A stretch of DNA of 63,593 bases, the filler included, from Klebsormidium nitens (Eukaryota; Plantae; Klebsormidiophyceae), in assembly GCA_000708835.1 (NCBI GenBank). It is 4 parts of 4 records of this genome, joined end to end, with 100 filler letters (N's around TTAATTAATTAA, not from the genome) between each part and the next. Parts side by side here need not be neighbours in the genome. Positions count along the whole stretch, not along the records: positions 1 to 31,082 come from DF237778.1; 3 more parts are not named here. The stretch is one strand, 5' to 3'. The position numbers were made by a program, and so were the translations under genes. The notes below the pieces were generated by a model, which saw nothing but the letters and a program-made list of their open reading frames with translations, had not been told where the DNA came from and did no database searches. Shown here piece by piece: positions 4,306-26,779 of the stretch; within the stretch, counting starts at the first letter, position 1; every line of letters begins with the position of its first letter.

Positions 4306-4306
4306 C

Positions 4307-4317: not shown

Positions 4318-4687
4318 GGCAAAGGGGCATTCCTTCGTTCATCCTGGTGAGGGCGTTTTGGGCATGCCAGTCTCAGAAGGAGAGGGTTGCTGCTTCTCTT
4401 GAGCAAATCACTTCGCTGTGTTTTCAGATCTCTGGGTTGGCAACAGTGGTTGTTGAAGACGAAGGGGAAAAGGCAGTGAGCACGTTTCCAACGTGTATCT
4501 CCTCCTCCGAGTCGCGATTAACTGCGACGTCACCACCTTTTGTTCCAAAAGAAAAGGAGAAGGTTGGTGTTTCTGATTCTGCATCTGTCTGGTAACCCCT
4601 GTTCGCTCGGGATATATTGGTGCTCTCACTAAACCTAAGCCTTCTGTTTCTGCTAAGGTTGGGGCATCAACTTCTGGATCATCGGAT

Positions 4688-5773
4688 ATGGCTGCTCCTA
4701 TGCAACATGCCAATACGGCTCCAGCATTCCTTGCTGCTTGGAACGCTGCCCCCGATGATAATGCCAGGCAAGCGTTAGAGCAGGTTGCTCTTGCGCATGG
4801 CACTACTGCTGTGAGGGTTGAGGCCTTGCTCAAGCGCGATGATAGGTCGCGAGCTGATATGGCTGCCCTCCATGCATCTCTGAATGCGGCTACGGCTGCT
4901 GTGAACGCTGCGAACGCAAATGCACAGGCCGCTCAGGCTGTTGCTGCGGCAGCTACTGCTTCCGCCTTTAAGCCAGCGACTCCTCCTCGTTATGAGAACA
5001 AGGATAAGGATATGGAGATTCGCAAGTGGCTTCCTGTTGTGGAGGATTATGCCAGGACCTGCAATGATGTCGATTATTTGCGCATTGTCAGCTCCTTTCT
5101 GCATGGCAAGCCGAGGTCGTACTTCCAGTCGAAGTATGATGCTCATAAGGCTGCTAACGGAGGGAATGAACCGGATGATCCCCGGGCATTCTTCCGCGAG
5201 ACCATGATCAGTGGATACGGTCTCTTTGACCAGACCCAGGTTTACTGGGATAACTGGAACAATCTGAGGATGTTGGGCAATATGGATATCGGTGATTACA
5301 ACATCGCCTTTACTCAGTGCCTTACTGACCTTGGTGATCAGATCCAGGGAGAGCAGGTGAAGATCGAGAAGTATCGTCTCGGCCTGCAGTCTGATATGCG
5401 CGAGATGGTTCGCACCTCTCCCCAAGGCACTCGCTGGGAGACTCTGCAGGCTCTTATTGAGTATTGTTCGCTCCAGTGGCCTATTGTGGCTGCCAGGATT
5501 GCAAAGCGGACCAAGCATCCTCCTGCAGCTGGGAAGGTGGGAGGCAAGCGCAAGTCCAGTGGGGGTGGAGGTGGCTCCAGCTCTAGGCCCAAGTTGGGGG
5601 CAACTGGTAGGCTCTCTGAAGAGCAGAGGGCCCACAATCTGAAGAACGGGCTCTGCCATATCTGTGGAAAGGCAGGTCATATGGCTAAGGATTGCCCTGA
5701 TAGGGATCCTTCTAAGCCGTTTGACGAGAACAAAAAACAGAAGAAGGGCAAGAAAGACTCTAAGGATTTTTAG
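4688..5773 (+). CDS. gag: Gag with CCHC zinc knuckle
   Basis: 361-aa ORF; retrotransposon gag-like core and CHICGKAGHMAKDC knuckle. Confidence 0.93.
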   Translation: MAAPMQHANTAPAFLAAWNAAPDDNARQALEQVALAHGTTAVRVEALLKRDDRSRADMAALHASLNAATAAVNAANANAQAAQAVAAAATASAFKPATPPRYENKDKDMEIRKWLPVVEDYARTCNDVDYLRIVSSFLHGKPRSYFQSKYDAHKAANGGNEPDDPRAFFRETMISGYGLFDQTQVYWDNWNNLRMLGNMDIGDYNIAFTQCLTDLGDQIQGEQVKIEKYRLGLQSDMREMVRTSPQGTRWETLQALIEYCSLQWPIVAARIAKRTKHPPAAGKVGGKRKSSGGGGGSSSRPKLGATGRLSEEQRAHNLKNGLCHICGKAGHMAKDCPDRDPSKPFDENKKQKKGKKDSKDF

Positions 5774-5806
5774 AATCTCTAGGCAGTACAGGACGACTTC
5801 CTAGAG
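5764..5806 (+). promoter_or_regulatory. -1 programmed ribosomal frameshift signal (G GAT TTT, 6-nt spacer, stem-loop)
   Basis: Pol frame is -1 to gag and is closed upstream by TAA at 5761-5763. Slippery heptamer at 5764-5770; stem CTCTAGG(5777-5783) pairs with CCTAGAG(5800-5806). Confidence 0.8.
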
Positions 5807-8800
5807 TAAATCCTCAATCTGCGTTGCTAGATCTTACAGTGGGAGACTTCCTGGATATTTCAATGACACTAGGACGTGTATTTGAAATTGGAGTTTCTCA
5901 TACTAAAGGAGATTTGGCTACAGATTGGAGTCCTTCTTCTCAGTTCTTGGCCCCTGTGCTAGCAGGAAAGCATGTGTGGTTGAATGCTCAGAATTCTACA
6001 GAGATGTCAGAACGTCTGAGGCAATTTCATTCTGCTTACTTGTCTAGTCCTACTGACACGTCTGCTTGTGTATTGATCAGGCAGAGTGCTCCAGTAGATC
6101 TGCATCTGTTGAAGAACTTCGTTGAAGTACTAGCTTTGCCTAAGGGGTCTCCTGTTCGTCGTTTGTCTGACGATGGAGAGTGGTCTGTTGTTAAGAGTCC
6201 TGAGAAACTGCGTGTTCTGTATCTTGCTTCTACCGTTGACAAGGTGTCTGCAGAGGCGGGACTTATGACAGGACGCATTCTGGCAGCTTCTCGTAAAAGG
6301 GCTGATGGGTCACCTGCCCTTCGGATGATGTTTGCTGCTCGTGCCGCAGGCACTAATGCGAATATCTTGTTTGACAGTGGTGCTTCGCATAACTATGTGT
6401 CGACCACGTTTGCCAAACTAACGGGCATCTCGGTTAGTCCTTCTTTGCAGAAAGTTCGACTCGGATCTGACCAGGAGGTAGCTCCTGATGGCGAGGCGAC
6501 GGTATATGTTCGAATAGGGTCGTTTCATAAGCCAGTCAAATGCCTTGTCATGAATCTGTTGTTTGAGGTAGATATGATTCTGGGAGATGAGTTTATGAGC
6601 AAGTATGATCGCATCTTGCATTATGGCCGTAAGTGTCTTATGATTCAGAAACGAAGAAGACACATTACTGTCAGGACTCCTCCTATGCACAGGGAAGCTC
6701 CGGAAGAAGCCGAGGCTGTTCCTAATGTGTTCTCTGCCTCGCAGAACTTTGAAGAGGGCTGTTCGGCGAGGGGAGCGTGTAACGGTACGGAAGCCGACCG
6801 CCTTAGCCGCTCGGCTATGCATCCAAAAAGCTGTCGACTGGATGCACACTAAGGCGCTTCCGTAATTTATATATCGATTTTGCGTCGGCCGTCCGCGCGT
6901 CGCGGCCGGGTTATCGCGTCGATTTTCGTTCCGCTNNNNNNNNNNNNNNNNNNNNNNNNNNNNNNNNNNNNNNNNNNNNNNNNNNNNNNNNNNNNNNNNN
7001 NNNNNNNNNNNNNNNNNNNNNNNNNNNNNNNNNNNNNNNNNNNNNNNNNNNNNNNNNNNNNNNNNNNNNNNNNNNNNNNNNNNNNNNNNNNNNNNNNNNN
7101 NNNNNNNNNNNNNNNNNNNNNNNNNNNNNNNNNNNNNNNNNNNNNNNNNNNNNNNNNNNNNNNNNNNNNNNNNNNNNNNNNNNNNNNNNNNNNNNNNNNN
7201 NNNNNNNNNNNNNNNNNNNNNNNNNNNNNNNNNNNNNNNNNNNNNNNNNNNNNNNNNNNNNNNNNNNNNNNNNNNNNNNNNNNNNNNNNNNNNNNNNNNN
7301 NNNNNNNNNNNNNNNNNNNNNNNNNNNNNNNNNNNNNNNNNNNNNNNNNNNNNNNNNNNNNNNNNNNNNNNNNNNNNNNNNNNNNNNNNNNNNNNNNNNN
7401 NNNNNNNNNNNNNNNNNNNNNNNNNNNNNNNNNNNNNNNNNNNNNNNNNNNNNNNNNNNNNNCCGTTACAGAGCGCGTGTTCCTTGCATCACTGAAGCTG
7501 CTGGAACCAGACGCTGCTGCTCCGGAGTCGGCTTCTCCTTCTGCCCAACCTGGTCATCCGGCAAGTGAGAAACCGTGGGTCTCTAACTTGATTGGCGAGT
7601 TTTCTGAAGTGTTTCAGGATCCTCTTCCGGAACAGTTTGCCTCCTATGAGAAAGGAAGTGCACAGTATTTCCACAGAGCCAGGACATCCGCCTCCGTTTC
7701 GGCAGATGTACCGTTTATCTCCGTTGGAGTACAGAGAGTTGGAGAAACAGGTCACGGCTTTTCTTAAGGCTGGGATTTTGGAAATGTCCACGTCCCCATA
7801 TGGTGCACCTGTTCTGTTTGTTCCAAAGCCTAATGGCAGGGGTTTGAGACTGTGTGTCGATTACCGGGCTTTGAACGCAATCACTATCAAGAATCGTTGT
7901 ACGATTCCCAGGATAGATGATCTTCTGGATGCAGTGTCAGGATCAAAGTATTTTACTTCATTGGATCTGACGTCTGGTTATCATCAGATACTGATTTCTG
8001 AGGAGGATCGACCTAAGACTGCGTTTCGCACTCCGTTTGGTCATTTTCAGTTTAAGGTGTTGATAGAAGGCCTGACGAATGCACCTGCGACGTTTCAGAC
8101 GGCTATGAACTCTATCTTCCATCCTTACCTCCGAAAATTTGTTGTTGTCTATCTAGATGACATTCTGATATACTCTCGGACAGAGAAGGAAAATAAGGCA
8201 CATGTTCGCCTAGTTCTGGACGTTCTCAAGCGTGAGAAGTTTTACGTGTGTAAAGCTAAGTCCACCTTTGCTGCCAAGGAGATTAAGTTTCTGGGACATA
8301 TTGTCAATTCGGAAGGCATTCGCCCTGACCCTAAAAAGGTCGAGGTTGTCCAAAATTGGCCTGTGCCGAAGAACGTTCATGAGGTTCGTTCATTTCTGGG
8401 CTTGGCTAATTATTTTCGGAAGTTTATTAGTCATTATTCGGAAGTCGCCGCTCCCTTGACTAATCTTACGAAAAAGTCTCACGTGTGGCTTTGGACTGGC
8501 AAATGCCAAGATGCTTTTGAGAAGCTTAAGCATCTTCTGACAGAAGCTCCGTTGTTAATGACTCCAGATGAGTCAAAGACCTATCGTGTGGTTACGGATG
8601 CTTCTGATATTGGTCTGGGCGGAGTTTTGCTACAGGAGGATCTTCCTATAGCTTATGAATCTCAAAAACTGAATTCTGCTGAGCAGAACTATACAACGAC
8701 TGAACGGGAAATGTTAGCCGTTGTTCATGCTCTGCGTGTGTGGCGTTGCTACCTGGAAGGTGTGTACTTTGAAGTTGAGACGGACCATAAGTGCAATACT

Positions 8801-11511
8801 TTCTTCCAGAGTCAGCCGAACCTCTCACGGCGCCAAGCACGTTGGTCGGAATTCCTACAGCGCTTTGGCAAGTTCAAATGGGACTATCGCCCTGGCGAGC
8901 AGAATGTTGCGGATGCGTTAAGCAGAAGGGATGTAGCTGCCAGTTCGCAAGATTTTGTATCTGTTTTTAAAGCTCTGGCGGTCTGCGCTGCTGCTGTTTT
9001 GAGCGGAATGTACGATCGGTCTAGTAAGCCCGGCCAGGCTGAACGGTTAGATCGCGACCAAAGTTGTGCTTCGACCCTAACGTTTGAATTGCCGTCTTCC
9101 TTGCTCAAGTCTCTCCACTTGGAAAGTCAGGTTCTGTGCGAACAGATACGGCGAGATGCAAACCGTCCCTCTAAGTCGCCTGGGTTGTGTGTCAACTCGC
9201 AAGGTCTTGTCATCAAGGATTCCCAAGTAGTAGTCCCTGATCATTGTGATCATCTGAAACGGGATATCATGGAAGCTTTTCATGATACACCCTCTGCGGG
9301 ACACTATGGAATAGCCAAGACTTGCAAGGCAATCCAGAAACTCTTCTTTTGGACATCCATGAGAGNNNNNNNNNNNNNNNNNNNNNNNNNNNNNNNNNNN
9401 NNNNNNNNNNNNNNNNNNNNNNNNNNNNNNNNNNNNNNNNNNNNNNNNNNNNNNNNNNNNNNNNNNNNNNNNNNNNNNNNNNNNNNNNNNNNNNNNNNNN
9501 NNNNNNNNNNNNNNNNNNNNNNNNNNNNNNNNNNNNNNNNNNNNNNNNNNNNNNNNNNNNNNNNNNNNNNNNNNNNNNNNNNNNNNNNNNNNNNNNNNNN
9601 NNNNNNNNNNNNNNNNNNNNNNNNNNNNNNNNNNNNNNNNNNNNNNNNNNNNNNNNNNNNNNNNNNNNNNNNNNNNNNNNNNNNNNNNNNNNNNNNNNNN
9701 NNNNNNNNNNNNNNNNNNNNNNNNNNNNNNNNNNNNNNNNNNNNNNNNNNNNNNNNNNNNNNNNNNNNNNNNNNNNNNNNNNNNNNNNNNNNNNNNNNNN
9801 NNNNNNNNNNNNNNNNNNNNNNNNNNNNNNNNNNNNNNNNNNNNNNNNNNNNNNNNNNNNNNNNNNNNNNNNNNNNNNNNNNNNNNNNNNNNNNNNNNNN
9901 NNNNNNNNNNNNNNNNNNNNNNNNNNNNNNNNNNNNNNNNNNNNNNNNNNNNNNNNNNNNNNNNNNNNNNNNNNNNNNNNNNNNNNNNNNNNNNNNNNNN
10001 NNNNNNNNNNNNNNNNNNNNNNNNNNNNNNNNNNNNNNNNNNNNNNNNNNNNNNNNNNNNNNNNNNNNNNNNNNNNNNNNNNNNNNNNNNNNNNNNNNGC
10101 TTAGTCTAAAAAGCTTATCGGACGGTTCCCAGGCGCGCGGTGCACGTGGGTCTTTATCGAACGGTCACTCGGTGAAGCAGTAACCTGGACACGTGGCGTG
10201 TAGTGATTCAATAAGTCGATAGCGTATAATAACGGACGATGCGCGGCCGCGAGTTCAGCGCGCAGCCGGGAGTCGGTGCGCAGTCGTGCCGTTGCAGAGG
10301 ATGTCGCAAGATATGTCACTAATTGTGTCAGCTGTGCTCGTAACAAGGCGAGGCGCCACGCGCCATACGGCCGGCTGCAGACAATTCCGGTCCCTGAAAA
10401 GCCTTGGCATAGCGTGTCTATGGACTTAATTGTCAAGCTACCAGTAACGGCCAGGGGCCATGACTCTATCTGTGTTTTCGTTGACAGGTTGACGAAGATG
10501 GTACACTTCGTGCCCTGCAAGGAAAAACTGTCTGCGAAAGGATTCGCAGAGCTCTACGTAGACAATGTTTTCCGTTACCATGGTCTTAGCGAAGAGTTCA
10601 TTTCTGATCGTGATAGTCGGTTCACGAGTGAGTTTTGGAAAGGAGTGACCGAGTTGCTTGGCACGCGGCTTTGTGTGTCATCTTCTTTTCATCCTCAGAC
10701 GGATGGTCAAACTGAACGGGTTAACCAGACTCTGGAAGCATATCTGCGTCATTTCGTTTCTGCAACGTTAAATGACTGGGATCTCTTGCTGTCACGTGCA
10801 GAGTTTGCCCATAACAACGCTTTCCATGAATCTGTTCAGGCCACGCCGTTTTATCTGAATCACGGCCGCCACCCGAGGACTCCAATGGGTGGTAAGCGCG
10901 ATGATGATGTACCTGCTGATTCTGCTGCCTTCGTTGAAAGATTGCAATCAACTCTCACCTTGGCACGCAAGTTGCTGATTGCTGCTCAACAGAGACAGAA
11001 GGCATATGCAGATAAGCACAGGATTGAAAAGTCCTATAAGATTGGAGAACAGGTTCTTCTGAGTACGAAGTACCTGAACATAAAGCATGGCGAAACTAAT
11101 CGCAAGCTTCTCCCGAAATGGATTGGTCCATTCAAAGTCGTGCAGAAGGTGGGTCCCGTCTCTTATGAGTTAGAGATAAATCCAGGCTGGCGTGTGCATC
11201 CTGTGTTTCACGTCTCTCTGCTGGAGCTGTACAAAACTGACGGCAGGATCCGACCCCCACCTCCTCCAATTGAATTGGAAGGTGCTCTGGAATATGAAGT
11301 GGAAGCGATCGAAAAGCATCGAACCACTGGGCGTAAGAAGCCTAAAACCTCCTATCTTGTTTCATGGAAAGGTTATGGTCCAGAACATAACTCATGGGAG
11401 CCGGAGGCGAACGTCGCGAATGCTCCTGAAAAACTTGCGGAGTACTGGAAAAGGTACGCTGAGAAACAGAGTGGGGTTGAGGAAACCCTTGGAGCCCTCA
11501 TTCTGAAGTAA
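5764..11511 (+). CDS. pol: Pol polyprotein: degenerate N6-MTase-like domain, aspartic protease, RT, RNase H, integrase, chromodomain; interrupted by two assembly gaps and apparent frameshifts near 6750 and 7630
   Basis: ILFDSGASHNYV (PR); VVVYLDDILIYS (RT); VVTDASDIGLGGVL (RH); HDTPSAGH...CVSC, SMDLI, ISDRD, GQTERVN (HHCC and DDE integrase); KWIGPF; EYEVEAI...YLVSWKGYGPEHNSWEPEANV (chromodomain). Confidence 0.93.
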
Positions 11512-11945
11512 CAGGTACAGAGCCAAGACAGTTGTGGCTCCCCGCGACACCTCGAGATAAGTCGGATCTCTTGGTTACCTCGTGTAGTTCAAAAACTGTT
11601 TCTGTTCTGTTCTGACTTCTGAACTGGTCTCAAATACGTGACATGTCAATAGCTGACATTCTGATGCAATTTCTGCAAATCTGAAAATGATACCACTGTG
11701 ACGATCGGGGTCCTTACCACTGGACCACGGAGCCAAAAGGCATTTCTGAATCTCTGAAATTTCTGAATTGATTAAAGTCTTCTTTAGTCTCTACTGCTTG
11801 AGTTAGAGCAATTTGAGCTCTTCTCGGGACTCTGAATAGAGCCACGGCGTGTTTCGTCGAGGGGCTCGTCTTTCTGTTCTCTGAATTCTGTTACAAAATC
11901 CCCAGTATCTGAGTGTTGAGCTGCTGGGGTGTAAGTCTGGAGCAC

Positions 11946-12597
11946 TGTAACGTTTGGAGTTCGGTTAAGACTAACCATCCATCCGTTAACAAATATGCCA
12001 ATCTAACTCGGCATAGCTCAAGTCTGATGTGACTCAATAACAGGCATTTAATTGTCTTAGAGTCCTCATCATTGGGTTGTCACTGTCGGCGTAAAAGTCG
12101 AGGACAAGCCCATGTGTCTGAATGATGAATGGCATGTATACATACTCTGTATGGTGCCAAGTCGTAGTGCAAGTCATGACATGTATGCATGTTTGACCAA
12201 TGAATGCGTGCTTAAGCCTGCTACATGGTATGCAGCATGCTAGAGGGTGCACGTTGCACTACTACGGTCTGAACCTGATGTTGACTGTGTAAACCAGTGC
12301 ATAGCTTATTGACGTTGACTAGAGGTATGCATTAGGGCAGTCTGCGGACAGCCCTAAGTAAGACTGATACTCTAAGATTCGCCATGAGGCGTACTGCCTG
12401 GGAAGACAGAAGACTGAAGGATTGTGAAGCGGGGATCATTCATTCGAATTCCCAACCAGCAACACAATTCCTACGAACTCAGGGAAGATCGTTTCTGAAG
12501 AGCCGCACCCTCGAACTGCAAGCATATCTGTGAAGGCATCCATGATTCCGCCATGGCTGCCCTGACGTGAGAGCGAACTAGCACGTCCAACATTACA
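11946..12597 (+). repeat. 3' LTR
   Basis: 652-bp direct repeat of the 5' LTR, followed by the TSD ACATA. Confidence 0.96.
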
Positions 12598-13063
12598 ACA
12601 TATCTATTAGTGGAGAAAGGCAAGAGATCTTGATTGCTGCTGTCAGTGCGCAGTGCGATGACGCACCTGCCCCTTGCCGCCGGCGGTGCCAAAGGCCAAA
12701 GGGATTGAAGCAGGAGGAGCAGCCTGCTCGCGAGGTTCCGCGAGGCCGGCGCTTCAGCGCTGCTGACCAGAAAGCAAAGCAGCAGGATGCGCCGGTACTC
12801 GAAGAAGCTCTGAATTGCGCTGCGGAACGTGGTGAGCAAAAGGCGGATTGTTTGCTTCTTCAGATGCCAACACTTAAGTTCAGGGGATCTTTGATTGCTG
12901 GCCCTGCAAGCAAGTGTATCAAAGCTCATTCTCTTTTCATTTTCAACAAACAGTAGGACATCAGTGCCATCAAACATACCACGGTTTCAAGAAAAGAGTG
13001 TTCTTTGGAACTTTAGAACAGTGGGTCGATGATCCTTCATGAAATGACCAGCAGATTTTCAGT

Positions 13064-13495
13064 GGCATGGCTAGGCGTGCGTTGGGAAGTGTACCAAGAT
13101 TTTGCCATTCTTTCTAAAGATACTAATGGGCCATTTCTTGGTACAGCGCGAGAAGTTGGTGGCATGGCTGGATCTGCGTTGAAATTGTACCAGGTTTGAC
13201 CACATAAGAATGGCATTGATGGCATGGCTGGGCATGCGTAGGGAAGGTACCAAGTCCTGACCACTTCTTTTTCAACATAACAATGGCACCAAGAGTTGAT
13301 GGCATGCCTGGGCGAGGCAGGGAAGTGAACCAAGTTCTGACCCATTCTTTCTCGAGATGATCATGGATCACTTCTTGGTACAACGCCAAAAACTGATGGC
13401 ATGTCTGGGAAGTGTACCAACTTTTGGCCAATTATATGTTAAGATAACAATAGGTCATTTCTTGGTACAGGGCCAGAAGTTGATGGCGTGGCCGG
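13064..13495 (+). repeat. Diverged tandem array (~5 units) of the GTACCA...TGGTAC family, intronic
   Basis: GGCATG(G/C/T)CT flanks at 13064, 13161, 13221, 13301 and 13398; cores at 13091, 13187, 13247, ~13326 and 13413. Confidence 0.8.
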
Positions 13496-14158
13496 TCTTG
13501 CAGGCAGGTGTGTGCGATAGGAATGATGGCCATGATTCTCTTCGCCTTCGTCTCTTTTCTAGACCTCATGCCTTTCATTGCCGTGAGTGCGACACGCCCG
13601 CAGGATTCAGGCTTCGTGGGGGCAAGTACGGAGGGAATGTCAGATACTATTGCGAGCGCCACGGCCCTACAAAGGGTTGTTTCCAGATCGACAAGGACCG
13701 TGCAGGTAAGAGGAGACACACACACCTTGCTTCAAGTTGTGTGCAGCAATCAGCAACTCGACCTTAATCACAAGTGCAGGTCTTTGCATGGCTGTGCACA
13801 GCCCCCGCAAACTTGCCCTTATCGTGCCCTTTCTTCATTGCAGCATGGGTTCAGGGGCGCGAGAAGACGGGAAGGAAGGCGAACCCTGCCTGTCCTGAAC
13901 GCGAGCAGCATCTGAAGGGGTCCGGATCACCTGCTGCACGTCGGTCAGGGACAGCAACAGCAGGTGAGCGCCCAGAATTTTAAAGGGGAATAGAATTCGG
14001 CACTGTGCCAAGCCAGCTGTCACACTCTTTAGCTCGCAATCACAGAAGATGGTTCCAAGTCGCGCAAAAACCGGAGGGGTTTCAAGCGGCGCCCCAAAAG
14101 CACTGTACCAAGGAAAAGCGTTTTGTGGTGCTTCAACCCCGCTTCTCATCGAGAACGT

Positions 14159-14260
14159 GTACCAGGAACGACCTATTACTTCTTAAGAATCCTAATGGGC
14201 GTTCTTAAGAATCCTAATGGGCGTTTTTGGTACGCAAATGTCGCCGGGTATGGCCGGACA
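14159..14260 (+). repeat. Single palindromic unit with an internal 22-bp tandem duplication, intronic
   Basis: TTCTTAAGAATCCTAATGGGCG at 14180-14201 and 14202-14223. Confidence 0.88.
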
Positions 14261-14724
14261 GATTGCATGCTCTTGTATAGCCGCACGATTTGGAGGACTA
14301 CTGCAGGTTCCCTGGTAGTCAATTGTGACGTCCTAAGTGCGGCAATTCTGACCCATTGAGCGCCTCCTTTTCAGAGTCCGTGTGCGCTGACCGCGGCGCC
14401 CGCCACAGCCCCCCCACAACCGCCCCCCCTGCGGCCGCCAGCGACTCTGAGTCGGACTGCGGTCTTGGCGCAGCCTGCCATCAGCACGCTGCCAGTGACG
14501 AGGCGCAGCCCGGGCAGCCTCCCGTCCACCGCGCAGAGGGCCTGTGCGCGCTTTCAAGCGGGAGCGCCAGGTTTGGGGTTCAGCCCACTGTCATGAAGAG
14601 CGTGCTGGTGAGGAGCGCATTCCAAGGTAAGCGACGAACCCCTCCTTTCATCGACGATCCCATGCGTGTCCTCTCCTGACAGATTTTGGCGGTTTCTTCT
14701 CGAACATCAAAAGTCCGCTCAGAT

Positions 14725-15240
14725 TCTGGTACATCTTGGCAGGTACGGCCGGGGCCCCTCAAAAACGGTGCGATGCTTTGCAGGGTGCGGGGGTGTGTAC
14801 CAAGAAAGGCTGTATTACTTCTTAAGAATCTAATGAGCGTTTTCTGGTACATCCTGCGGGGTATGGCCGGCTTTGCCCATCAAGCGCATGATCCGACCAT
14901 CCAGCACACAATCAGCGCGTACCAAGAACGATGTATTACTTTTTAAAGAATCTAATGGGCCTTTTCTGGTACATCCTGCGGGGTATGGCCGGGGCCCCAT
15001 CAAGCGTGATTCCAGCCATCCTGCGCACAATCAGGATGTACCAGGAAACGCTGTATTACTTTCTTAAGAATCTAATGGGCCTTTTCTGGTACATCCTGCA
15101 GGGTATGGCCGGCCTTGCCCTTCAAGCGCATGATCCGACCATCCAGCGCACATTCCGAGTGTACCAGAAAACGCTGTATTACTTTCTTAAGAATCTAACG
15201 GGCGTTTTCTGGTACATCCTTCAGGGTATGGCCGGGCCCC
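14725..15240 (+). repeat. Tandem array of ~120-bp units with a 55-bp palindromic core (4 full units and 1 half unit), intronic
   Basis: Cores at 14797, 14919, 15038 and 15161. Core 15161-15215 has a perfect 14-bp inverted repeat GTACCAGAAAACGC/GCGTTTTCTGGTAC around TTCTTAAGAA. Confidence 0.93.
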
Positions 15241-15622
15241 CCAATATGGTGCGAGCCTTTGCCGCACCGCAAGCGCCAAGTGTTTACTTTGTAAGATTTC
15301 GAATGTCTGCAGGACCACTGGAATCGTGGCAGGACTCTCAACTCGCCCGGCCCTTCAGGCTTACCCCCCAACATTATGCTCGTGCAGGATCTCCGACCTA
15401 CGAGTGCGGGTCGGAGAAGGTCTTTTACTCCTCAGCACCAAAGAGCAGGGCGCTGATAGGTACGATGGCAGATCTCTGGCATTTGTTGGCAAGAATAGGC
15501 TTCCGTCGGCTTTGTGGATACGACAGTGAATGCACGAGTCTAGCTTGAAGGGCTTGCCATTCTGAGGACGATTGATTGAGGGATCCCTTCGGTGCGTTGC
15601 AGCGACACAACTGAAAATCGGG

Positions 15623-15646
15623 GGCGTGGAAAGCAACCCGGGGCCA
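15623..15646 (+). other. 2A/StopGo-like peptide motif GVESNPGP
   Basis: In frame in exon 15603-15712; spliced context RRLCGYDTTQLKIGGVESNPG|P. Confidence 0.7.
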
Positions 15647-16159
15647 ACACAGGATCCCGACGCCCCGAGCAGCTCGTCCGGACGGCCCCCGATTCCGATT
15701 ACGACTGCGGAGGTGAGCAGTTTGTCAGGCAGAATCGTTCAGAATTGTTCCTGCCTCCTGCCTCCTGCCTCCCTTTCCGCACCCCCAAGGTTTTCGTGAC
15801 CTTTCACACCGTGATCTGTAGCATTGGCAGAGCGACCAAGTGATCAATGATGATGAGTAAATGTCCAATCCATGTCATGCAGGAGGTCCAGGAGAGCGTC
15901 AGGCCGAAGCCAATCAGCACCGAGGCATTTGATGCGTGGCGAGCAAGCGTGAGTCTCCGCCGCTGTCCGACGTGTGCGAGACGTTGTCATCGAGCACGCT
16001 CATCCATATGCGCCCATGCACGGTGAGCGCTTGCATATGGAAAGAGTCGATTGGTTGATTTCTAACTCTTGCGTGCGCCTCTCTCATTCAGCGACCAAAT
16101 CCAAACTGGGTGGCAGAGGCGATGGCACTCTACTCAATACAAGCGGGTCAACCGCAGGG

Positions 16160-16558
16160 TCAAGAGCCGCCCAGTGAGCCAAGCGCCGCCGGGGAGGTGA
16201 GTGTCCTACATTCCTCAACTGCTGCGCGGCAGATGCGCTTGGAAAGCTCGCCTTTGAACTCCTCAAATCTGCCCACTTCACTGTCCAGAAACTCGTCGAA
16301 GAATCCGATAACATCGTCGCTCGACCAGGCGTCGAACCCCCCCGCTTGCATGAACCATCGAAACAGCCACGGCCAGGATAGATCCCTCGGGTCGTTGCAT
16401 GTGCCCCTCCTGCAGAGGCGCGTGATTGCATATGCGGCTGCATCCTGGAAGCTCTCTGCTGCCCTCAGAGTGTCTCGATCGATCATGGCGCCGAGCGCAA
16501 AGACGTCCTTCACCTGCTCGGCGGTCCTGACCGCACTCCAATTGTAGTACCATTCCAT
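16160..16558 (-). CDS. Hypothetical 132-aa protein nested antisense in an intron
   Basis: Intronless ORF with CAAAC-ATG start context, lying mostly in intron 16197-16625; globular-looking composition; no family recognised. Confidence 0.55.
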   Translation of the reverse strand: MEWYYNWSAVRTAEQVKDVFALGAMIDRDTLRAAESFQDAAAYAITRLCRRGTCNDPRDLSWPWLFRWFMQAGGFDAWSSDDVIGFFDEFLDSEVGRFEEFKGELSKRICRAAVEECRTLTSPAALGSLGGS

Positions 16559-16695
16559 GTTTGAAGTTGCCTTCTCTACGTGTCATCTGCCCCTAAGCCC
16601 CTTGCCTGAACTCCATGTCGTGCAGGAGACGGGCCCCTCCTCCAGCAACCCGCATTCTGCCAGCCAACCTCGCTCCGCTGCTGCAGAGCCGGCAC

Positions 16696-17160
16696 CTACG
16701 GTGAGCCCATTCGTGCAGCCAGAGGCATCTTGACGAGGATCCTGTTGCCTTCGACAGTGATCGAACCCTTGTCGCCCCGGTTAGCGCCCTTCCAATTGAC
16801 GGTCCCGCTCAGCTGCACTCCCCATACGGCAAAAAAGTGGGAGATGAGGTACTCGAGCCAGCTTACATAATTGTAGAGCTTCTCCCCTTTGTCCCAAACA
16901 AGGGCGCGCTTGTTGGGTGATACCGTCCACTGGCAATAGTAGGAGGGGTAGTTTTCGTATTTGTTGAACCACTCGCCAATATAACACGGCTTGAATATCT
17001 CCCGCTCGATCGTGACTGGGCGCTTCTCGAAAACTGCGTAAGGTAGCTCGAGGTCCTCCTGGTGGCGGTGGTCGTGCACGGCTTCCAGATTTGCGCTCTC
17101 CTCGGCAGTCAGGGGGCGGGAAAGGGCAAAGCGGCCGGTGAACCTTGTGTCGTAGCCCAT
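16696..17160 (-). CDS. Phage/bacterial-type conserved hypothetical protein (MGYxTxFxG...WDxGEKxYNYVxWLEYLI family), nested antisense in an intron
   Basis: 154-aa intronless ORF; the pattern MGYDTRFTGRFALSRPL...YCQW...WDKGEKLYNYVSWLEYLISHF...G.V.W.G resembles a phage hypothetical family recalled from memory. Confidence 0.75.
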   Translation of the reverse strand: MGYDTRFTGRFALSRPLTAEESANLEAVHDHRHQEDLELPYAVFEKRPVTIEREIFKPCYIGEWFNKYENYPSYYCQWTVSPNKRALVWDKGEKLYNYVSWLEYLISHFFAVWGVQLSGTVNWKGANRGDKGSITVEGNRILVKMPLAARMGSP

Positions 17161-17358
17161 GATCCAATGCCCTTCTGAGTGCCAAAGCGTTTGCCTAAGT
17201 CTGTGTGATACCGTTCTATCGGTCGAGGTCGCCTCGTCTGTGCGCCCTTTGTCCTTAACTCCTCACACTCAAGATTGCGATCTTGCAGGACCCGCGCCCC
17301 TCCTCCCACCCCCCGGATCCTACTAGCCAACCTCGCTCCACCCCTACACAGCCAGCAC

Positions 17359-17844
17359 CTACGGTGAGTCGAACAATGCCTCGATGCGGAATGCCTCGAT
17401 CGGATCCATCTTGACGACAATCCGGTCGCCATCGACCGTAATTGACCCCGTGTCGCCCAAACGATTGCCCTCCAATGTGACGGTGCCGCTCAGCTGTACT
17501 CCCCATACCGCAAAGAAATGAGAGATGAGGTACTCGAGCCAGCTTACATAATTGTAGAACTTCTCCCCTTTGTCCCAGACAAGAGCGCGCTAATTGCGTG
17601 AGACAGTCCAACGGCAGTCGAAGGAGGGGAATTCCTTGAAGATGTGGAATCCCTCCCCACAGTAGTTGCGCTTGACTCCCTTCCGCACGATCTTGACTGG
17701 GCGCTCTTGACTGGGAGCCGCAGAGGGTAGCTCTAGGCTATCCTGAGGGCGGTAGTCGTGCACAGCCTTCAGAATCGCGCTCTCTTCGGCGGTCAGGGGG
17801 CGAGAAAAGGCGAAGCGGCCGGTGAATTTCGTGTCAAAGCACAT
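17359..17844 (-). pseudogene. Tandem paralog of 16696-17160 with a premature stop and frameshift
   Basis: MCFDTKFTGRFAFSRPLTAEESAIL...CRWTVSRN* followed by RALVWDKGE and a frame change. Confidence 0.8.
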
Positions 17845-18829
17845 GGTTATAATGGCCTTTGAGCGCCAAGGCGTCCCCCTAAGTACCGGTGACGCCTGCC
17901 CTGAATTGAGCGTGTCCCGATGCTTGGATGCAGGAGGTCGCACGTCGGAAGAGGACCGCCTCGAGCAGGGAGAGCTCCCCGGCGCCCACCGGTACTCGGA
18001 TGCGGACCGGAAGCCCGGACGAAGCGGTGAGCAATCGTGTGCTGTGGCTTTTAGGGAGAAGTGTGCGCGATTGGTGAGAGAGTGAGGGGTATGCCGGGCT
18101 GTTTTGTGCCCTAAAGGCATTCGGCTCTGTCTTCATTGCCCGGCTAAGCACCTTATGCATTTGCCAATCGCAAATTCCCATTGCAGATTCCCATCGCTTT
18201 TGCTGACTGTCAATGAGGAGCAAGCACGGCGGGAGTCCGTTAATCCCTTTGTTGATGTCCCCCTGCAGGAGGCTGCGGCGATGTCTGACGAAGAGGCCGG
18301 CTCCGTCGACATCGAAGAAACGTCAGACGAGACCGAGTCCGACGAAGAGCCCACATCCGAGGATGACCGGGGCGTCGACGACTCGGTGCTGCCGGACGCT
18401 GAAACACGGGATTTGTACCGGCGGATGGAGATGGAGGAAGCGGAAGCTCGGTTCGCGGAGGACGAGACCCCGGACGATGCGCTGGCGCCCATGCGGATGG
18501 AGATGCAGTGGAGGCGGGCCCGGGATGAAGCGCCACAGACCTCTGTGTAAGTAGCTCTTCTTTAAGAGATTGTGGTGAACCTTACAAACTTGGTGGAGGC
18601 TGCAGGTCACCCCCGCTTCTCTTGGGCTGCCTGATGTGCTTCTTGGGCGAATCGTTGTCGAAAATCTGTATCAAGCAGATGGTGCAAAGTGTACATCAAG
18701 TAGCATCCAGGAATTGAGCGTTTCAACAGATCGCTGACACGTGTACATCTTGACTCTCTGATGAACACGCTTGGCGTTCTCTCTTTTTCCAGTATTCGCT
18801 TTGGGGCTGGCCTTACATTCTCCAGTGTA

Positions 18830-19075
18830 AGGCGGGCCGGCCCATCAAATGTTGCAGTGTTTTTGAAATCGCTGAATCATTTCTTATAAAAGTTGGAAGC
18901 TACTCTTGGTACATGCTTAGCGATGCTTTCCTGGTGTACGACAGCCAGTGCCATCAAGCCCATCTAGCAGAACGGGCCTATCAAACTTGTATCTCTCGAA
19001 AGCGACATGTCCCAAGAACCGACGTGTTACTCGTTAGAGAAGTAAAAGGCAGTTTCTTGGTACACCGTGGGGGTA
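18830..19075 (+). repeat. Degenerate copies of the palindromic repeat family, intronic
   Basis: GTCCCAAGAACCGACGTGTTACT...GTTTCTTGGTAC at 19009-19063 and a GGCCGGCCCATCAA flank near 18835. Confidence 0.55.
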
Positions 19076-19186
19076 CGAAAGCCCGCATCTCGCTCATGAG
19101 CACGACAGCATGTTGCAACTCCTGTCCAGGGCTTGGCACCTTTGCGCTGTGGCGTTTGACTTATCAATCTTACATTGCTCATGCAG

Positions 19187-21250
19187 ATTCTCAATGGCGC
19201 ACGAGGATCTTGTGGCAGTGCCTGAGCCAGCGGTGCATTCTGACCCGCTGACTGGCAACGAGGTCTTTAAGAAGGACGGGTTTCGGGTGCTGCGTGTGCG
19301 GGAGCACGAGACCAACTGCTTCCATCAGACGGGGGCCAACCCAACGGGCCGCCTTCCCGGCCCAAAGTTCTTCATGCAGCAGGAGGCGGCGCTCCTAAAC
19401 CACGAGGCGCAGGTGGTCCTGCACAAGTGGTCCGGAAAGGTCGAGAAATTGGTGAGGGTCCCGTGGCGCAGCTTCGCTTCGTACCCCGACTGGGAGACGG
19501 CGCGGTCGCATCTCGAGGGGCGGCACGGGTCAGTGACGGAGATCATCCAGAACGGAAAACCCTGCAAGCCCTACCTTGACCTCGATGGCAAGGACGGGCT
19601 CCCCTTCAAGCGCAAGCCGGTGACCGGGGCGGATGGGGAGGTTGTGGAGGCTGGGGAGAGGTACGGGGGGGAGGAGGTGATCAAGATCGTGGAGGAGTGG
19701 GCCGTTACTGTGTTTAAGGAACAGTACGACCATGAGCTGCAGCCGAGCAGCTTCGTCTGGATCGAGAGCCCCTGCCAGACCAAGTTCAGCCTCCACCTCA
19801 CGATCAATCAGCTGTCCCCCCGTCAGCTCGTCTTTGGCTCCAACACCGAGGGGGCTCTCCACTTTGCGAGGCGCCTCAAGAAGAGGTTGCTCCCGTGGCA
19901 TCCTGCGGTCGCGAATCTCATCGACCTGAACGTGTACACGAAGGACCGCGAGTGGCGGACGCTGGGGAGCGCCAAGATCGAGAAGCCGGAGAGCGTCTTG
20001 TCGTGCATCAATCCGGCCCATTCCTGGAAGGATGCTCTGGTGACCTGGCTGGAGCCCCTCGAGGTGAGCAAGTCATCCAGGCCCCACACCCGCCAGGTCG
20101 GTCACGTCCTGAAGAGTGTACCTGAAAACGGCCTTTTACTTCTCTGAAGAGTTATACGGCCTTTCATGGTACGGGGCAGATTGTGCGTTTGATGGGCTGC
20201 CCGGCCATACTCGCAGGACGTACCAAAAAAGGCCCTTTAGATTCTTCAAGAAGTAATACGTCGTTTCTTGGTACCTAAGTGCTGCTGTTTTTGCGCTTGA
20301 TGGGCTGCCCGGCCATACCCGCAGGACGTACCAGAAAAGGCCCTTTAGATTCTTCAAGAAGTATACGTCGTTTCTTGGTACACAAGTGCTGCTGGTTTTG
20401 CGGCGAGCCTGACCAGTGGTTCCTTGAAGCGCGGCCTTGAGGTTCCTAGAAAGAAGGATCCTGCTTGTGGCGCACTCCTCGTTTCTGATCGCCTCGTCAG
20501 CGTTGATGCTTGGTGGAATCGCTGCATTTGAAGGCGCTCCGCTTTTGCTGCAATCTGTCCTTCTCACGCAACTATTGATTGAAAGATAGTGCAAGTTTTG
20601 TTAGGTCAGAGAATTGACAAACACGAAGTGTCATGGCCTGCTTACCGGCTTCCTCTTCTCATTTAGACGTAGATGATTTGGTACGAATGCTCTCGTAAAC
20701 AGCTGCTCTCGTGCTGTCTGCAGGCTCGTGAGGAGGTCAAGCTGCCATTCGAAGTACCCAAAAGGCTCCACGAGAGGTTCCAAAACCCTCGAGTGATGTC
20801 TGAACGGGGCACGGAGCGCAGCTCACAGAACGACGAGTTTGTCAAGGCGCGCATGCTGACGCTGCTCAGAGAGCGCTTGCACCCTAGCGCCTATGAGGAG
20901 GGCCTCGATCGCTACAACTACAGAGATCGGGCAGAGCCGTGCTACACGGGTCGGATCCACGAGAACCGTCAGAATCTAACCTGCCACCTCAACCCAAACG
21001 GCAAGATCTATGCTCTTTGTTTCAGCCAAAATACCGAGGGCGGGGACTCGGACGTTCCCTGTGTCAAAAGGGCGTTCTGCCTTGGGGACCTGTTCGAGGA
21101 CAACATCTCGTACGAGACTGGCGCGGTCAAGGTAGACATGGAGCACCTGACGCGGGCCCCCGATGCGTCGACCCCTGAGCTCGTGGCTGAAGTAGGGGCG
21201 GGTATGAGGATGCCGAGCGACCTGATGAAGCTGAACACGGTCGCCAACGA
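19187..21250 (+). CDS. PrimPol-type archaeo-eukaryotic primase domain plus UL52-like Zn finger (exons 19187-20063 and 20724-21250)
   Basis: TEII..GKPCKPYLDLD (motif I, DxD); KFSLH (motif II, SxH); IDLNVYTKDREWRTLGSAK (motif III); PCYTGRIH...YALCFSQ...C Zn knuckle. Confidence 0.88.
20117..20381 (-). repeat. Three reverse-oriented palindromic units inside primase intron 20064-20723
   Basis: Cores at 20117 (degenerate), 20220 and 20328, each preceded by CCGGCCATAC..GCAGGAC for the last two. Confidence 0.88.
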
Positions 21251-21459
21251 GTAAGTGTTGTAGCGGAAAGATTAAGTACGTGTCCATTGTGATGCGGGAA
21301 GCTTTCAATTCTTTTGCGCCTGACAAGCTTTTGTTTCGGCCACAAACCCACTTTCTGGCCAGCGTCCTAGGGCTGTTCGCGACCACCGCGATTTCCCACG
21401 GAGTGTGCGCTTCTGTACGCGTACCACACAGTCGTCTTTTGCCGCTTTTGACAATTCTC

Positions 21460-22173: not shown

Positions 22174-25100
22174 GTGGATCCAGGGCAAGTTTCCCCTGCT
22201 TGGCATCCGGTCGGGCGTGAACACTGGCAAGACGGTGTTCTGCGGGGCCGTTGGGGATGAGCTTTGCGAGCAAGCGACCGCCCCCTCACGTCGATCATGA
22301 TCACGTACCGAGTGGCCCAGGCTCAAGACCTGAAAGAGCGCTTTCCCCGCACCGCAAACTACCTCGACCTGAAGGCGGACTACGATCACAAGAACGTGTG
22401 GTTCGAGGATCCGAACAACAAGCACATCCTCCTAACGGCCCTCCAGTCCCGAAAGGGCTTTCCCGAAATCGTGGTTCAGGTGGACAGCCTCCTCAACCTC
22501 CGGCGGGGTGGCATTGGCGAGGTTGCCCCGTTCGATCTCGTGATCCTCGACGAGGTGGCAAGCATCCTGGCGCACCTCTCAGCAGCAACTCTAAGGAACG
22601 GCATGGAGACCGGCGAGCTGTTCTTGGAGATTGTGCAGCGGGCAAGCGCGTGTTGGCCATGGACGATGGGTACGGGCAGCGGGAGCACGACTTCTTCCGC
22701 CTCGCAAACGTGCCTGGGAAGCTCATCATCAACAGAAGAAGGGCAGCGGTAGGCACTGAATTGATCGCGCTCTGATCAGTGATGACAGCTTTTGACACAG
22801 TGCGTCTTCCTGTTTGCTGAAGTTCTGGCCGTTTGGAGTCTGGACGCTTGAAAGTGCTTGATGCGGCATGCCTTGCTTTGGCCGCGCCTTGGTTCGCTGA
22901 AGTGGTTAGAAGCAGGATCGAACGGAACAGAAACTTTGGGCCTTTTGCCACGTTCTTTTCTTCTTGAGCGCCTTCAAAGGCAAGTGTGCCTCAGCATGTG
23001 TTGCTCAGATCTTTTTAAAGCACCTCTTGAACTGCTAACAGAGCCCGGCCATACCGTCACCTTTTCTAACGGGAGTTGTGTTTGATAGTGCAGCGTGTTC
23101 GTTCCTAGATTCAAAGACGGGCTTTTTGGTACCCGATGCTCTCTCACGTACATTCAGCCCACAGCGCGCTCATTCTCTGTACCACTTCATGCGCAGGTGC
23201 CTCTGACGTTCCGCGTCGGTCAGGACGAGAAGAAGTGGTTGGATCGAATCGTCGAGGACCTCGCGGCTGGCAAGAACGTGGTCGTCGTCAGCATGTCTGC
23301 GCGAGTCCTGGACCGCATCCGGGACCGGGTGACGTCACACCACTCGCTTGGGCTTGCAGACAGGGACATCCTCATCCATAAGGCCTTGAGCGGGGGCGAA
23401 ACCACGGCTCTCCTGAAGAACGTTGCAGAGAACTGGAAGGTTCGCCTGCTCATGTACAGCCCCACCGTCAAGGCTGGCGTGAACTTTGACGTTCCTTGGT
23501 TCCATACCAAGTTCCTCTACATGTGCCAGAAGAGCACGACGGCTCGGGCAGCCTGGCAGGCGACGCTGCGGGTGCGGAAAACGGAGAGCCCGCTAGTTCA
23601 TTGCTTCGTCTAGTCGTCCATCTCCGTGATGCTCGACTGTGCGCAAGAGATCCCAGCCGCGCGACTCTGCAATCTGGAACAGCAGGTGAGCAGATCGCAT
23701 GCGGCAACTCTTCCAGGTTACTTGCTTGACGTCGAGCAATTAACCGCGCATTGTGCTCAAGCTGCGGAAGCCACTTGGATCTATCTCGTGCTGAAACCTG
23801 CATCTCTCTCCGGTGTGCCATAAGGGATTCAACTTGCTTGTCGTGCAGGGAACGACGGCTATGGCACCGCAGGCTCCGGACGTTGACGACGACCCTGCTT
23901 TGCAGGTATTCACTCTATCTCATCTGTGCGCTTCGTCCCTCCCACTATGCACATTGCTTCCCATCTTGCTTGGGTCGAGCCATGCAACCTCCAGTGGGGC
24001 AGCTCCAGTCTTCCAAGCCTGTGCTCCGAATGCTGCTTGACGGCCCCTGAAAAGTGCTTCATTGCGAAGGTGCTGACAACGCTGCTTGATAGCGAGCCTG
24101 AGACACGTGCTCCACTGCTGGGAAATTGACACGATTGTTCTCCTTTTCACCCGCAGGATGCTGATGGGGACCGCTTGGACCAGCAAGTGGCGGTCGATTC
24201 CCCTCTCAACCGGGCGTCCGATTCTCAGTCTGGGGCGAAGGTCTCCTTGGGCCAACATTTTGAGCAACTCAAGGTGGGAAGTGAAGATCGACGTGCCTGC
24301 CTTAGATTCTGTCCAACTGTCTGGCTTTACATGCGCCTTTGCAAAGCGTACAGTGAGCAAGTTGTTCCTAAGTTCATCCACTGCTCTACAATATTGTGAG
24401 GGCCATTTCAGGGGCCAGTTTCGTTGGTGCGCGTTTGGGGCCAATTTCGTGGGACTCCGTTTAGTGGGCTTGTTTTGTGGGGTCCAAGTGGGGTCCAACC
24501 GGCTTTGGGGCCGGTTCAGAGGCTAGCTTTGTTAAGGGCCACTTTGGGGGGACAGTTCTGTGAGGGCCATTTCGGGAGCTAGTGGGCAACCTCCAAACCT
24601 GATGGAGATAACAACATCTGACTGTGGCAGAGCTGTGCATGAAGATTCACTCAATCTGATGTTCCTATTTGCAGGGATTCTTTGGCCCTCCACGGCGCGT
24701 GACCACGGCGGAGACGCTGCAATTTTTGCAAGCCTGCAACAGCGAAGTGACGGCTGCATGGAGGCGAGTCGCGTCAAGGACCGAGGACCCCGGCAAAGTT
24801 GTCCGGCTGATCGAGGACGGCCCCCTCTTCCGGACGTTTGCGCATACGGAGGCGGAGCGGCGGAACTCAGACGTGCGCCTGCTTCACGAGTTCCAACTGC
24901 AAGTCGCGCGAGCTGGCCACGTGGTGGAGGTTGAAGAACCCAAGGAGCTTTCGAAAAAGAGTAAGAAGCGGAAAGGGCTGGACGCAAAGGCGTTGAAGAT
25001 CATTGGGGCGAGGGCGATCGATGCGGCAGAGTATCAGGAGTTGAGGAGGTTGCGAGACACGAAGAGGGACAGGGGGGCGCAGAGTGTCGAGGTGATGAGG

Positions 25101-25894
25101 TACGAGGCCTGCCAGTACTACGGCCTGAAGGACCTTGACGAGCACTTCTTCAAGGAGACGAAGGCCGAGTACAAGCCCCCGTTCTCAAAGAAGCTCGACT
25201 TTCTGCTGAAGGTGCTACTCGAAGGGGAGTTGCTCGATGAGGGGGGAGTGGCTCGCCAGGGTCACGAGGTCAAGATGGTGGAGACTGCGCGGGGGCTGCT
25301 CAAGGACATGGGTCTGGCGCATGCGTTCGATGTGGGCGGTGAAATCCGCTCGCTACTTGCAGGCGGACTCAAAGACAGGCTCCTGCGATCGGACCTGTTC
25401 AAAGGCCGTCCCATGCAGGTCGGTTCGAAAACCGCGATGTCGGAGCGGCCCGTTTCCGAGATGTTCCAGATTCAGTTGCCAGCGCCCAGAACGGGGAAGG
25501 CTGAACTCGATCCGGTGCAATTGAAGGGGGTGATAAACAGAGTGCTGGAACACATGGGCCTGAAGGTGGGGAAGGGGATCGAGGTGGGCCGCCCGCGACG
25601 AGGGAAGGGGAAGCAGTACGAGTCGGGGTCCGGAAAGAGCACTACAAGTACAAGCTAGATCGGAAGAGCGTTCTCAGGATGGCAAAGCTCGTCAAGCTGC
25701 AGTTCCGTGAAGTCCCTCGTGTTTGGCAGCATCGGGGAGAGCTAGAGCCTGCGGTCAGAGGGTTTCTCAACGAGGTAGATGCGAGCAATCTTGATCATTT
25801 ATTGCGTAGGCCGTCTGGTTACCCTTTGCTAGAGGATCTGAGCTCGCCGGCAGGCAAGGACGATTCTGAGGAATGTATGATTGTGGTTCGTTAG
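22174..25894 (+). pseudogene. UL9-like (origin-binding protein) superfamily-2 helicase and C-terminal domain
   Basis: IRSGVNTGKT (Walker A); ITYRVAQAQDL (Ia); QVDSL; FDLVILDEVASIL (II); VLAMD (III); GKNVVVVSMS (IV); LLMYSPTVKAGVNFD (V); WQATLRVR (VI). Confidence 0.85.
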
Positions 25895-26221: not shown

Positions 26222-26779
26222 ATGGATGCGATTCTTGGCTATCGTCCTCAATCGCGCTTCGCAATCATTGAGATGGACAAATCCGTCCTTGAGAGCGCTC
26301 GATCAGCTATTGTACGATCGTACCAAGAGTTTGGCTTGCTAGATACGATATTGGATGCAGCGGCTCTGGCCGGCATGCGAGCTCTTACAGAGCCGTTCGA
26401 CCTTCGTCATATAACCAGACAGCTCGTGCGGTCGCTAATCGCTGAAGGATTCAACGCCTTTTGGGACCAGTCCAATTTGCATGGCCCGTATGCAATAAAG
26501 GTGAGCTGGCGAGCCGCCCTAAATCACGCGTCTCAAGCACGACGTTGGGCATGGAAGTTGCGAATCTCAACGACTTGGACCCATGTTAACGTGCATAAAA
26601 AAGGAGTGTTATCTCCCACGAATTCCATGGAACCAACAGCAATCTCTCCATCATCCTTGTATCGTGCTCCGAGCGTTGTGTGGGACGACACTGAGCCGGT
26701 TTTGGGACTTGAAATGCTTGCAAACCCGTTGAAAGCTCGAATTGCTCACGAAGTCTCCGAAATCATGTCGCCCAGATAA
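26222..26779 (+). CDS. Hypothetical 185-aa protein
   Basis: Intronless ORF just downstream of the helicase gene; no family recognised. Confidence 0.45.
   Translation: MDAILGYRPQSRFAIIEMDKSVLESARSAIVRSYQEFGLLDTILDAAALAGMRALTEPFDLRHITRQLVRSLIAEGFNAFWDQSNLHGPYAIKVSWRAALNHASQARRWAWKLRISTTWTHVNVHKKGVLSPTNSMEPTAISPSSLYRAPSVVWDDTEPVLGLEMLANPLKARIAHEVSEIMSPR

Follow-up and report, generated by a model that had tools for sequence, protein, structure and literature searches.

Organization of the locus

The window analyzed here is a 63,593-nt stretch of Klebsormidium nitens DNA (GCA_000708835.1), in which positions 1–31,082 derive from DF237778.1. On its plus strand lies a spliced gene that encodes, in this order, a Cys-rich leader, a StopGo (2A-like) motif, an acidic linker, a primase and a helicase. 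The first coding stretch of the leader (3561–3653, located by tblastn with the paralogs P0007 and P0008) has no ATG at the position where the paralogs start and is cut by an LTR retroelement (3654–12597) in the first coding exon; its LTRs (3654–4305 and 11946–12597) are 99.5% identical and it is flanked by a 5-nt target duplication, ACATA. The rest of the leader occupies several exons (12598–14626) with a Cys/His cluster (HCRECD at 13576–13593, YYCERH at 13645–13662). Compared with the paralogs, the leader exon at 13563 lacks one base, so that its frame is likely shifted. No match to the leader was found in Pfam, among PDB sequences, in the ESM Atlas above 0.80 or by Foldseek at E ≤ 0.001 (model pTM 0.37), and a single-sequence fold gave no assignment for the C-terminal domain of P0015 (pLDDT 37.5).

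The StopGo motif is encoded on the exon at 15603–15712 and is followed, between skip site and primase, by a low-complexity acidic linker on six small exons (15883–18546), as mapped with the NCBI model P0001 and contig joints. Two exons at 19188–21250 encode a PrimPol-type archaeo-eukaryotic primase (AEP) domain plus a Cys/His domain, with the primase motifs DxD (19566–19589), SxH (19782–19799) and motif III (19923–19958). A UL9-like superfamily 2 (SF2) helicase/origin-binding region (Pfam PF02399) lies at 22175–25894, with Walker A at 22211–22234 and Walker B at 22537–22563. The family profile matched human PrimPol (E 2.4e-9) and the herpes origin-binding protein UL9 in the PDB (E 1e-29). A phmmer search of the PDB with the primase exon alone gave no match, whereas the family alignment did. 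The placement of the motif between a Cys-rich N-terminus and the replicase, as originally proposed, is borne out by the model mapping and the domain matches.

P0001 (GAQ91665.1) aligns to 12654–21251 with no mismatch in any exon; being the model of the window locus itself, it does not count as independent evidence of conservation. At least 14 introns interrupt the gene. In the window copy the helicase frame is broken: it shifts near 22270, 22643 and 25630 and meets a stop codon at 23611, while the helicase part is unbroken in the paralog models P0004, P0005, P0007 and P0008. The StopGo motif stands in frame between two predicted products in the spliced model and in these four paralogs; the window copy is interrupted upstream. 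A near-identical transcript of the window copy was found in run X1, the only run with such pieces (0/253, 1/110 and 4/614 differences, one of them in the 2A exon). This transcript keeps the intron 18027–18268, and has a G>A change at 18268, the acceptor G. A full protein from the window locus is unlikely. The first-pass annotation missed the breaks upstream (LTR insertion, frameshift) and downstream (helicase) of the motif.

Splicing through the 2A helix

Splicing was examined with contigs of four runs (four studies) aligned to 14300–18700 at 85% likeness. The runs were taken as RNA by guess, and their joints have GT..AG ends. At this likeness most aligned contigs come from paralogs. Joints 14624–15386 and 15457–15601 were present in all four runs. 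They delimit an exon at 15388–15459, which encodes the first half of the 2A helix (ending in SAPKSRALI plus the first base of Ala), and a 143-nt GT..AG intron at 15460–15602, which splits the helix between −15 and −14. The same intron is present in P0001, and the contigs likewise show the neighboring introns of 761, 170 and 143 nt. The next exon (15603–15712) starts with (A)TQLKIGGVESNPGP and runs into the downstream linker. The spliced product is SAPKSRALI joined to ATQLKIGGVESNPG and followed by Pro, and its part from SRALI to the Pro reads like a typical class A StopGo helix; in short, the correctly spliced sequence ends in RALIATQLKIGGVESNPG-P (the hyphen marks the predicted skip point).

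An intron of 77 nt (15526–15602), with translation from an ATG at 15465 and a spliced peptide reading LARIGFRRLCGYDT joined to TQLK, had been predicted previously. The contig evidence agrees with this prediction in that an intron is removed at acceptor 15602, but its length is 143 nt, so that the ATG, the proposed donor at 15526 and an in-frame TGA at 15546 all fall inside it; LARIGFRRLCGYDT and the 22 upstream codons of the prediction are intron sequence. Contig depth points the same way. In the bin 15476–15622 the four runs gave 6.9, 438.9, 422 and 75.8, vs. 7.2, 441.7, 428.3 and 76.8 expected from the exon part alone; 22 exonic bases account for the observed values, which would be approximately threefold higher if 15476–15525 were exonic. 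The donor GTGAAT at 15526 has A at +5, where all 14 donors in the gene model have G. An open frame cannot single out this donor, because the frame stays open through to NPGP from any of five different GT sites in the intron. The 77-nt joint was absent among the 15 of 40 joints listed, and contigs lose rare variants, so that a minor 77-nt isoform could escape. On the joint data, the depth and the donor +5 base, with 15 of 40 joints listed and contigs as the only material, the 77-nt intron and its peptide were rejected.

It had also been suggested that intron retention brings a stop into frame and that splicing could act as a switch for the 2A helix and the replicase. The first part is correct, since retention leads into the TGA at 15546. 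Such a stop is unremarkable, as retention of most introns would give one, and this is one of 14 or more introns of similar properties in the gene. The 143-nt joint is dominant in 4/4 runs, no intron cover was detected at places where contigs span the joint, the contigs contained neither a retained nor an alternative form, and the core is not assembled across the intron. A lower-depth joint at 15459–15642 (GT..GG ends, 4/4 runs) would, if real, delete 13 core codons in frame and speak for a switch. The likeliest explanation is an alignment artifact from a divergent W-type paralog, because its ends are non-canonical, unknown letters lie between, one divergent contig per run carries it, and alignment resumes where the W-type paralog re-aligns. 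A regulated switch is therefore very improbable, and 15460–15602 is an ordinary constitutive intron. Since most aligned contigs derive from paralogs, the joints suggest that the intron position in the helix is common to the paralogs, and models P0009 and P0029 break at the same helix point.

A separate observation is a joint from 18025 to 15388, by which contigs of X2 (depth 1412) and X6 (depth 880) run from the exon end at 18026 backward into the 15388 exon. It could represent a paralog with a tandem block holding a second 2A, or a circular RNA.

The StopGo core and its family

The core GGVESNPG-P is encoded at 15620–15646, wholly inside the single exon 15603–15712; the idea of a motif assembled across an intron applies to the upstream helix, which is cut, and not to the core itself. 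The predicted skip point lies between Gly (15641–15643) and Pro (15644–15646). The expanded class A core is given as (D/G/C/N)(V/I)ExNPGP with Leu-rich upstream motifs in the available text of Li et al. (2026; PMC12846837), and the octamer GVESNPGP (15623–15646) conforms to it. This is the sole match to (D/G/C/N)(V/I)ExNPG(P/M/W) in six frames of the window, where 0.0007 are expected from residue frequencies. Both the presence of a 2A/StopGo-like motif and the replacement of D by G at the first core position, as first annotated, hold up; the same source reports G and C as confirmed at the first position, and puts the activity of natural M and W forms at about 92%.

The family consensus of the upstream stretch (−19..−10), xxxLIxxLLxI, is of the Leu-rich type. 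The window copy has two Leu only in this stretch, with Gln at −12 and Lys at −10. In the predicted structure of P0016 a helix is found at 209–218 (pLDDT about 60–70). The class B hallmark WxxxLxxEG(I/V)Ex(N/H)PGP is absent, as there is no Trp in −19..−10 and −8 is Gly instead of Glu. Its core sequence places the signal with the class A StopGo peptides of GxExNPGP type; it is neither class B nor a retrotransposon 2A.

The search with the primase exon gave 14 proteins, nine from K. nitens (59–100%) and five distant ones. Conservation of NPGP in homologs had been named as a check, and ESNPG was found in 8 of the 9 K. nitens homologs; the ninth model begins downstream. Leader searches gave 30 sites in 29 proteins, 26 fitting (D/G/C/N)(V/I)ExNPG(P/M/W). 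The leader family is also present in K. subtile transcripts, all 10 further family proteins looked up are from K. nitens, and GAQ93188.1 has the same Cys-rich leader. The 33 of 51 leader matches without ExNPG are mostly short fragments ending before or starting after the site; among them, P0047 carries DSNPGP and the P0029 model leaves the helix midway. In P0047 the leader and its DSNPGP variant precede a domain that resembles, by eye, a different AEP type.

At the first core position, the 30 sites have G (21), C (7), A (1) or E (1), and at +1 they have P (18), W (8), M (2), L (1) or F (1). The departures from the core are thus mostly on variants found active by Li et al. (2026; PMC12846837, as far as available), namely G or C in the first position and W or M in the last. 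E, N, P and G are the only invariant columns in an alignment of 12 proteins. Mean pairwise identity over 28 sites was 0.66 for −19..−1 vs. 0.12 on both flanks, a contrast inflated by the selection of sites with an NPG-requiring pattern and by the comparison of flanks without gaps. In a leader tree of 18 of the 29 proteins, W at +1 needs three changes and a single W clade was rejected (p-AU 9e-5); the 11 proteins without a detected Cys domain were left out, among them the window copy, both M forms and two W forms.

In P0015, P0017, P0018 and P0021, P-loop NTPases (weak to moderate AAA matches) follow this leader and signal, and P0020 contains the pair twice. Leader and signal together behave like a module that has been put in front of two or more unrelated enzymes.

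PGP motifs are frequent in proteomes, and the leader lacks a known fold against which an ordinary conserved loop of one multidomain protein could be tested. The probability that the motif is such a loop or a chance match is nevertheless negligible, given the expectation of 0.0007, the sharp conservation peak that ends at the Gly, the substitutions that follow known active variants and the skipping of sister peptides described below.

Skipping activity of family peptides

A reporter screen of 20-mers in human cells (Snell and Matreyek, 2026; PMC13405545) includes seven exact family peptides, of which five were classed as skipping, one as fall-off and one as non-skipping in the accessible supplements. 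The peptides of P0016, P0020, P0038 and GAQ93188.1 were skipping, that of P0051 skipping with reduced protein, that of P0015 fall-off only, and that of P0019 non-skipping. These seven share 13–16 of 20 residues with the window copy. In the result file as available, the 20-mer of the window copy was not found, nor were those of the helicase-linked P0007, P0008 and P0009; the family forms found in the supplements all end in NPGP, with no W or M forms. Near-identical peptides fall in different classes, and two of the seven family peptides lack clean skipping; the screen is therefore noisy or context-sensitive. Its classifier re-assigned only 86% of the training samples correctly, according to the same source.

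The available result file also contains paired G/D forms, which we take to be the authors' engineered entries. The change from the G to the D form turned skipping into non-skipping in three pairs, two pairs were still skipping and two non-skipping; G at the first core position is therefore no defect. For the last position, many +1 substitutions retain activity in vitro in the available part of a further report, in which W or M at +1 lowers the efficiency in cells (10.64898/2026.09.24.754024). The broad in vitro tolerance of this position weakens the argument from the W and M forms.

A different function could be that the signal is mainly a stall/fall-off element, which would lower the downstream replicase or NTPase as a self-limiting brake on a selfish gene instead of cleanly dividing two products. 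The fall-off of the P0015 peptide, the reduced protein with P0051, the lower efficiency of W and M forms in cells and the reduced abundance for 59–70% of retrotransposon-linked peptides in the screen (PMC13405545, available parts) are in line with such a brake. Four of the seven exact family peptides skip without reduction, however, and the family peptides mostly have 1–3 leucines, the range tied to viral-type skipping in the same source. We regard a brake as unlikely.

The activity data come entirely from mammalian systems and from peptides other than that of the window copy. Skipping somewhere in the helicase-linked family is quite probable. For the exact peptide of the window copy we put the odds of skipping a little below even. 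Leucines in the −19..−10 stretch drive activity, as reported in the available portion of PMC13405545, and 24 of the 30 sites have Leu at −12, the position at which all six members of the window copy's sub-clade have Gln. The motif might accordingly be a relic with read-through, skipping having decayed in this sub-clade while persisting elsewhere in the family. Such decay would fit the Gln at −12 and the additional Lys at −10 in the window copy, the breaks at several places of this copy, and its position in the tree, where it nests among W-type paralogs and probably lost the Trp codon (support of 81–86 only, which is moderate). Against decay, ESNPG is unchanged in 6/6 sub-clade members, and sub-clade transcripts are abundant among the aligned contigs, including the W form, which is visible as a three-base insertion in contigs of three runs. 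A relic seems quite improbable to us.

The primase-helicase and its viral relatives

An AEP with catalytic motifs followed by a UL9-like helicase is the domain order of Mimivirus R8 and ASFV pF1055L, and the fusion is also described for some mriyaviruses (10.1101/2024.02.29.582850, available text). The nearest relatives outside the family, in the metagenome loci L006 and L007, share 36–39% identity over the primase; they are single intronless ORFs beginning at the primase, and no ExNPG was found in either locus. L006 also encodes, by eye, apparent pieces of a D5-type primase-helicase. With P0010 as query no IMG/VR locus was retrieved, and the family alignment retrieved five distant loci, none with a StopGo core. 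One IMG/VR locus (L001, 1–16904) encodes an AEP-UL9 helicase, an A32-type ATPase and an ORF with an HUH-like motif, and resembles a mriyavirus; it has no StopGo core.

Klebsormidium is known to hold giant-virus genes (PMC5294986, as available). The window does not have the features of an endogenous giant virus or mriyavirus: among selected window ORFs, the Pfam and PHROG scans revealed no capsid, packaging ATPase, VLTF or HUH gene as hallmark neighbor, the gene has at least 14 introns, and ORFs of L001–L007 matched the window in the primase-helicase only.

No terminal repeats or transposase of a DNA transposon were found in the window, whose first part ends before the gap at 31083. Self-comparison of the window showed nothing beyond the LTR pair, a duplication within an intron and hairpins of a dispersed family, and Rfam gave 0 matches in 1–31082. 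The hairpins are imperfect, about 55 nt long with GTACC..GGTAC ends, and lie in clusters (13091–15215, 19010–20381 and 29398–30396) in both orientations, in introns of the gene and downstream of it (18 pattern matches, a few of them loose). Possible roles are those of small mobile units or of sites bound by the origin-binding protein.

Two antisense ORF remnants that are 75–78% identical lie on the minus strand in introns (16696–17262 and 17590–18132). The first matches PHROG family 38666, of unknown function, at E 4.9e-21. The remnants suggest further virus-like DNA inside the gene. Downstream there is a 185-codon ORF (26222–26779) and a short plus-strand ORF (27093–27389) that resembles the N-terminal part of a tyrosine recombinase; the latter had no Pfam match and a PHROG E of 0.039, and is cut by a 647-codon reverse ORF (27307–29250, minus strand) without family match. 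Elsewhere in the window, a spliced gene at 45950–47300 encodes a histone H3-like protein whose N-terminus is divergent; by eye it is a centromeric H3 (peptide at 46036).

The K. nitens protein GAQ92643.1 is presumably Crypton-like. Its top match is an Ndc10 domain, and row 25 of the available supplement file 4 of PMC13405545 lists for it a 2A-like peptide of another sequence, placed in the skipping class. DNA elements of Klebsormidium may often carry StopGo.

Interpretation

We conclude, with a probability of roughly 70%, that the locus holds one broken member of a spliced Klebsormidium gene present in many copies, and that the class A StopGo conserved in this gene likely frees a Cys-rich leader from a giant-virus-type primase-helicase. 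Removal of the 143-nt intron joins the two halves of the 2A helix; the ribosome would then release the leader at NPG-P and continue to a separate primase-helicase. Skipping would be expected in the alga itself, and may be partial in some members. The downstream product, Pro-linker-primase-helicase, would approximate the free-standing viral protein. A viral replicase may have been captured, gained introns, multiplied, and come to lie behind the leader-StopGo cassette. Function would be carried by intact or less broken paralogs, and the window copy probably makes no full protein; the StopGo cassette is conserved and probably functional in its new setting, and the window copy appears dead, which limits the value of this exact locus.

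A more far-reaching scenario, in our view rather unlikely, is an undescribed self-replicating Klebsormidium DNA element, with a captured spliced giant-virus primase-helicase, a mobile leader and StopGo exon cassette swapped before the replicase and NTPases, tuning by repeated P-to-W/M changes, and the 55-nt hairpins as origins.

Under the preferred reading of a StopGo divider between leader and replicase, the family is a natural experiment on the skip site, in which Trp or Met occupies +1 in a third of the sites. Trp at this position arose more than once; Trp/Met activity has been demonstrated only recently, and these forms are rare in viruses. The family further offers plant-lineage 2A peptides and a lead to a possibly mobile DNA element.

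Comparison with known systems

StopGo is known as a strategy of RNA viruses; outside them it has been described sporadically, in retrotransposons and in a few genes of animals. The setting here is new: a spliced nuclear gene family of a streptophyte alga, with the signal before a DNA-virus-type primase-helicase and an intron through its helix. We found no paper on StopGo before a primase-helicase, in the leader family or split by an intron, in a search thin on subscription literature. The first-pass annotation had called 2A motifs unknown in a spliced primase-helicase gene; the context is indeed undescribed in the literature searched, although Klebsormidium 2A peptides themselves do appear in the available supplements of PMC12338488 and PMC13405545. 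Two Klebsormidium sites, 151 residues apart, appear in Table S2 of Rao et al. (2025; PMC12338488), without discussion in the accessible text; both their sequence and their spacing match P0020. Snell and Matreyek (2026; PMC13405545) assayed the seven exact leader-family peptides; the available main text does not refer to Klebsormidium, introns or helicases, and the structure table, as available, has no primase or origin-binding annotation.

The closest system is the class A GxExNPGP type (PMC12338488; PMC12846837, available parts), with which the family's signal shares the core octamer, the preceding Gly, a predicted hydrophobic helix at −19..−10 and the mid-ORF position. In contrast to that type, the Klebsormidium host gene is nuclear and intron-rich, a DNA replicase lies downstream, the helix is encoded on two exons, and the window copy has Gln and Lys in the Leu patch. 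W or M at +1, rare in RNA viruses, is found at 10 of 30 family sites. The 2A-like peptides of non-LTR retrotransposons (Odon et al., 2013, via PMC13405545) and of sea-urchin NLR proteins are likewise encoded by eukaryotes, near the N-terminus, in multi-copy selfish or fast-evolving genes. In place of the APE endonuclease and reverse transcriptase of the non-LTR retrotransposons, the region downstream of the signal encodes either an AEP primase-SF2 helicase or a P-loop NTPase, and the genes are spliced. Mimivirus R8, ASFV pF1055L, malacoherpesviruses and the mriyavirus SF2_hel protein (10.1101/2024.02.29.582850, available text) have the same domain order and catalytic motifs as the downstream part, whereas the viral relatives examined here (L001, L006 and L007) are intronless and start at the primase, with neither leader nor 2A.
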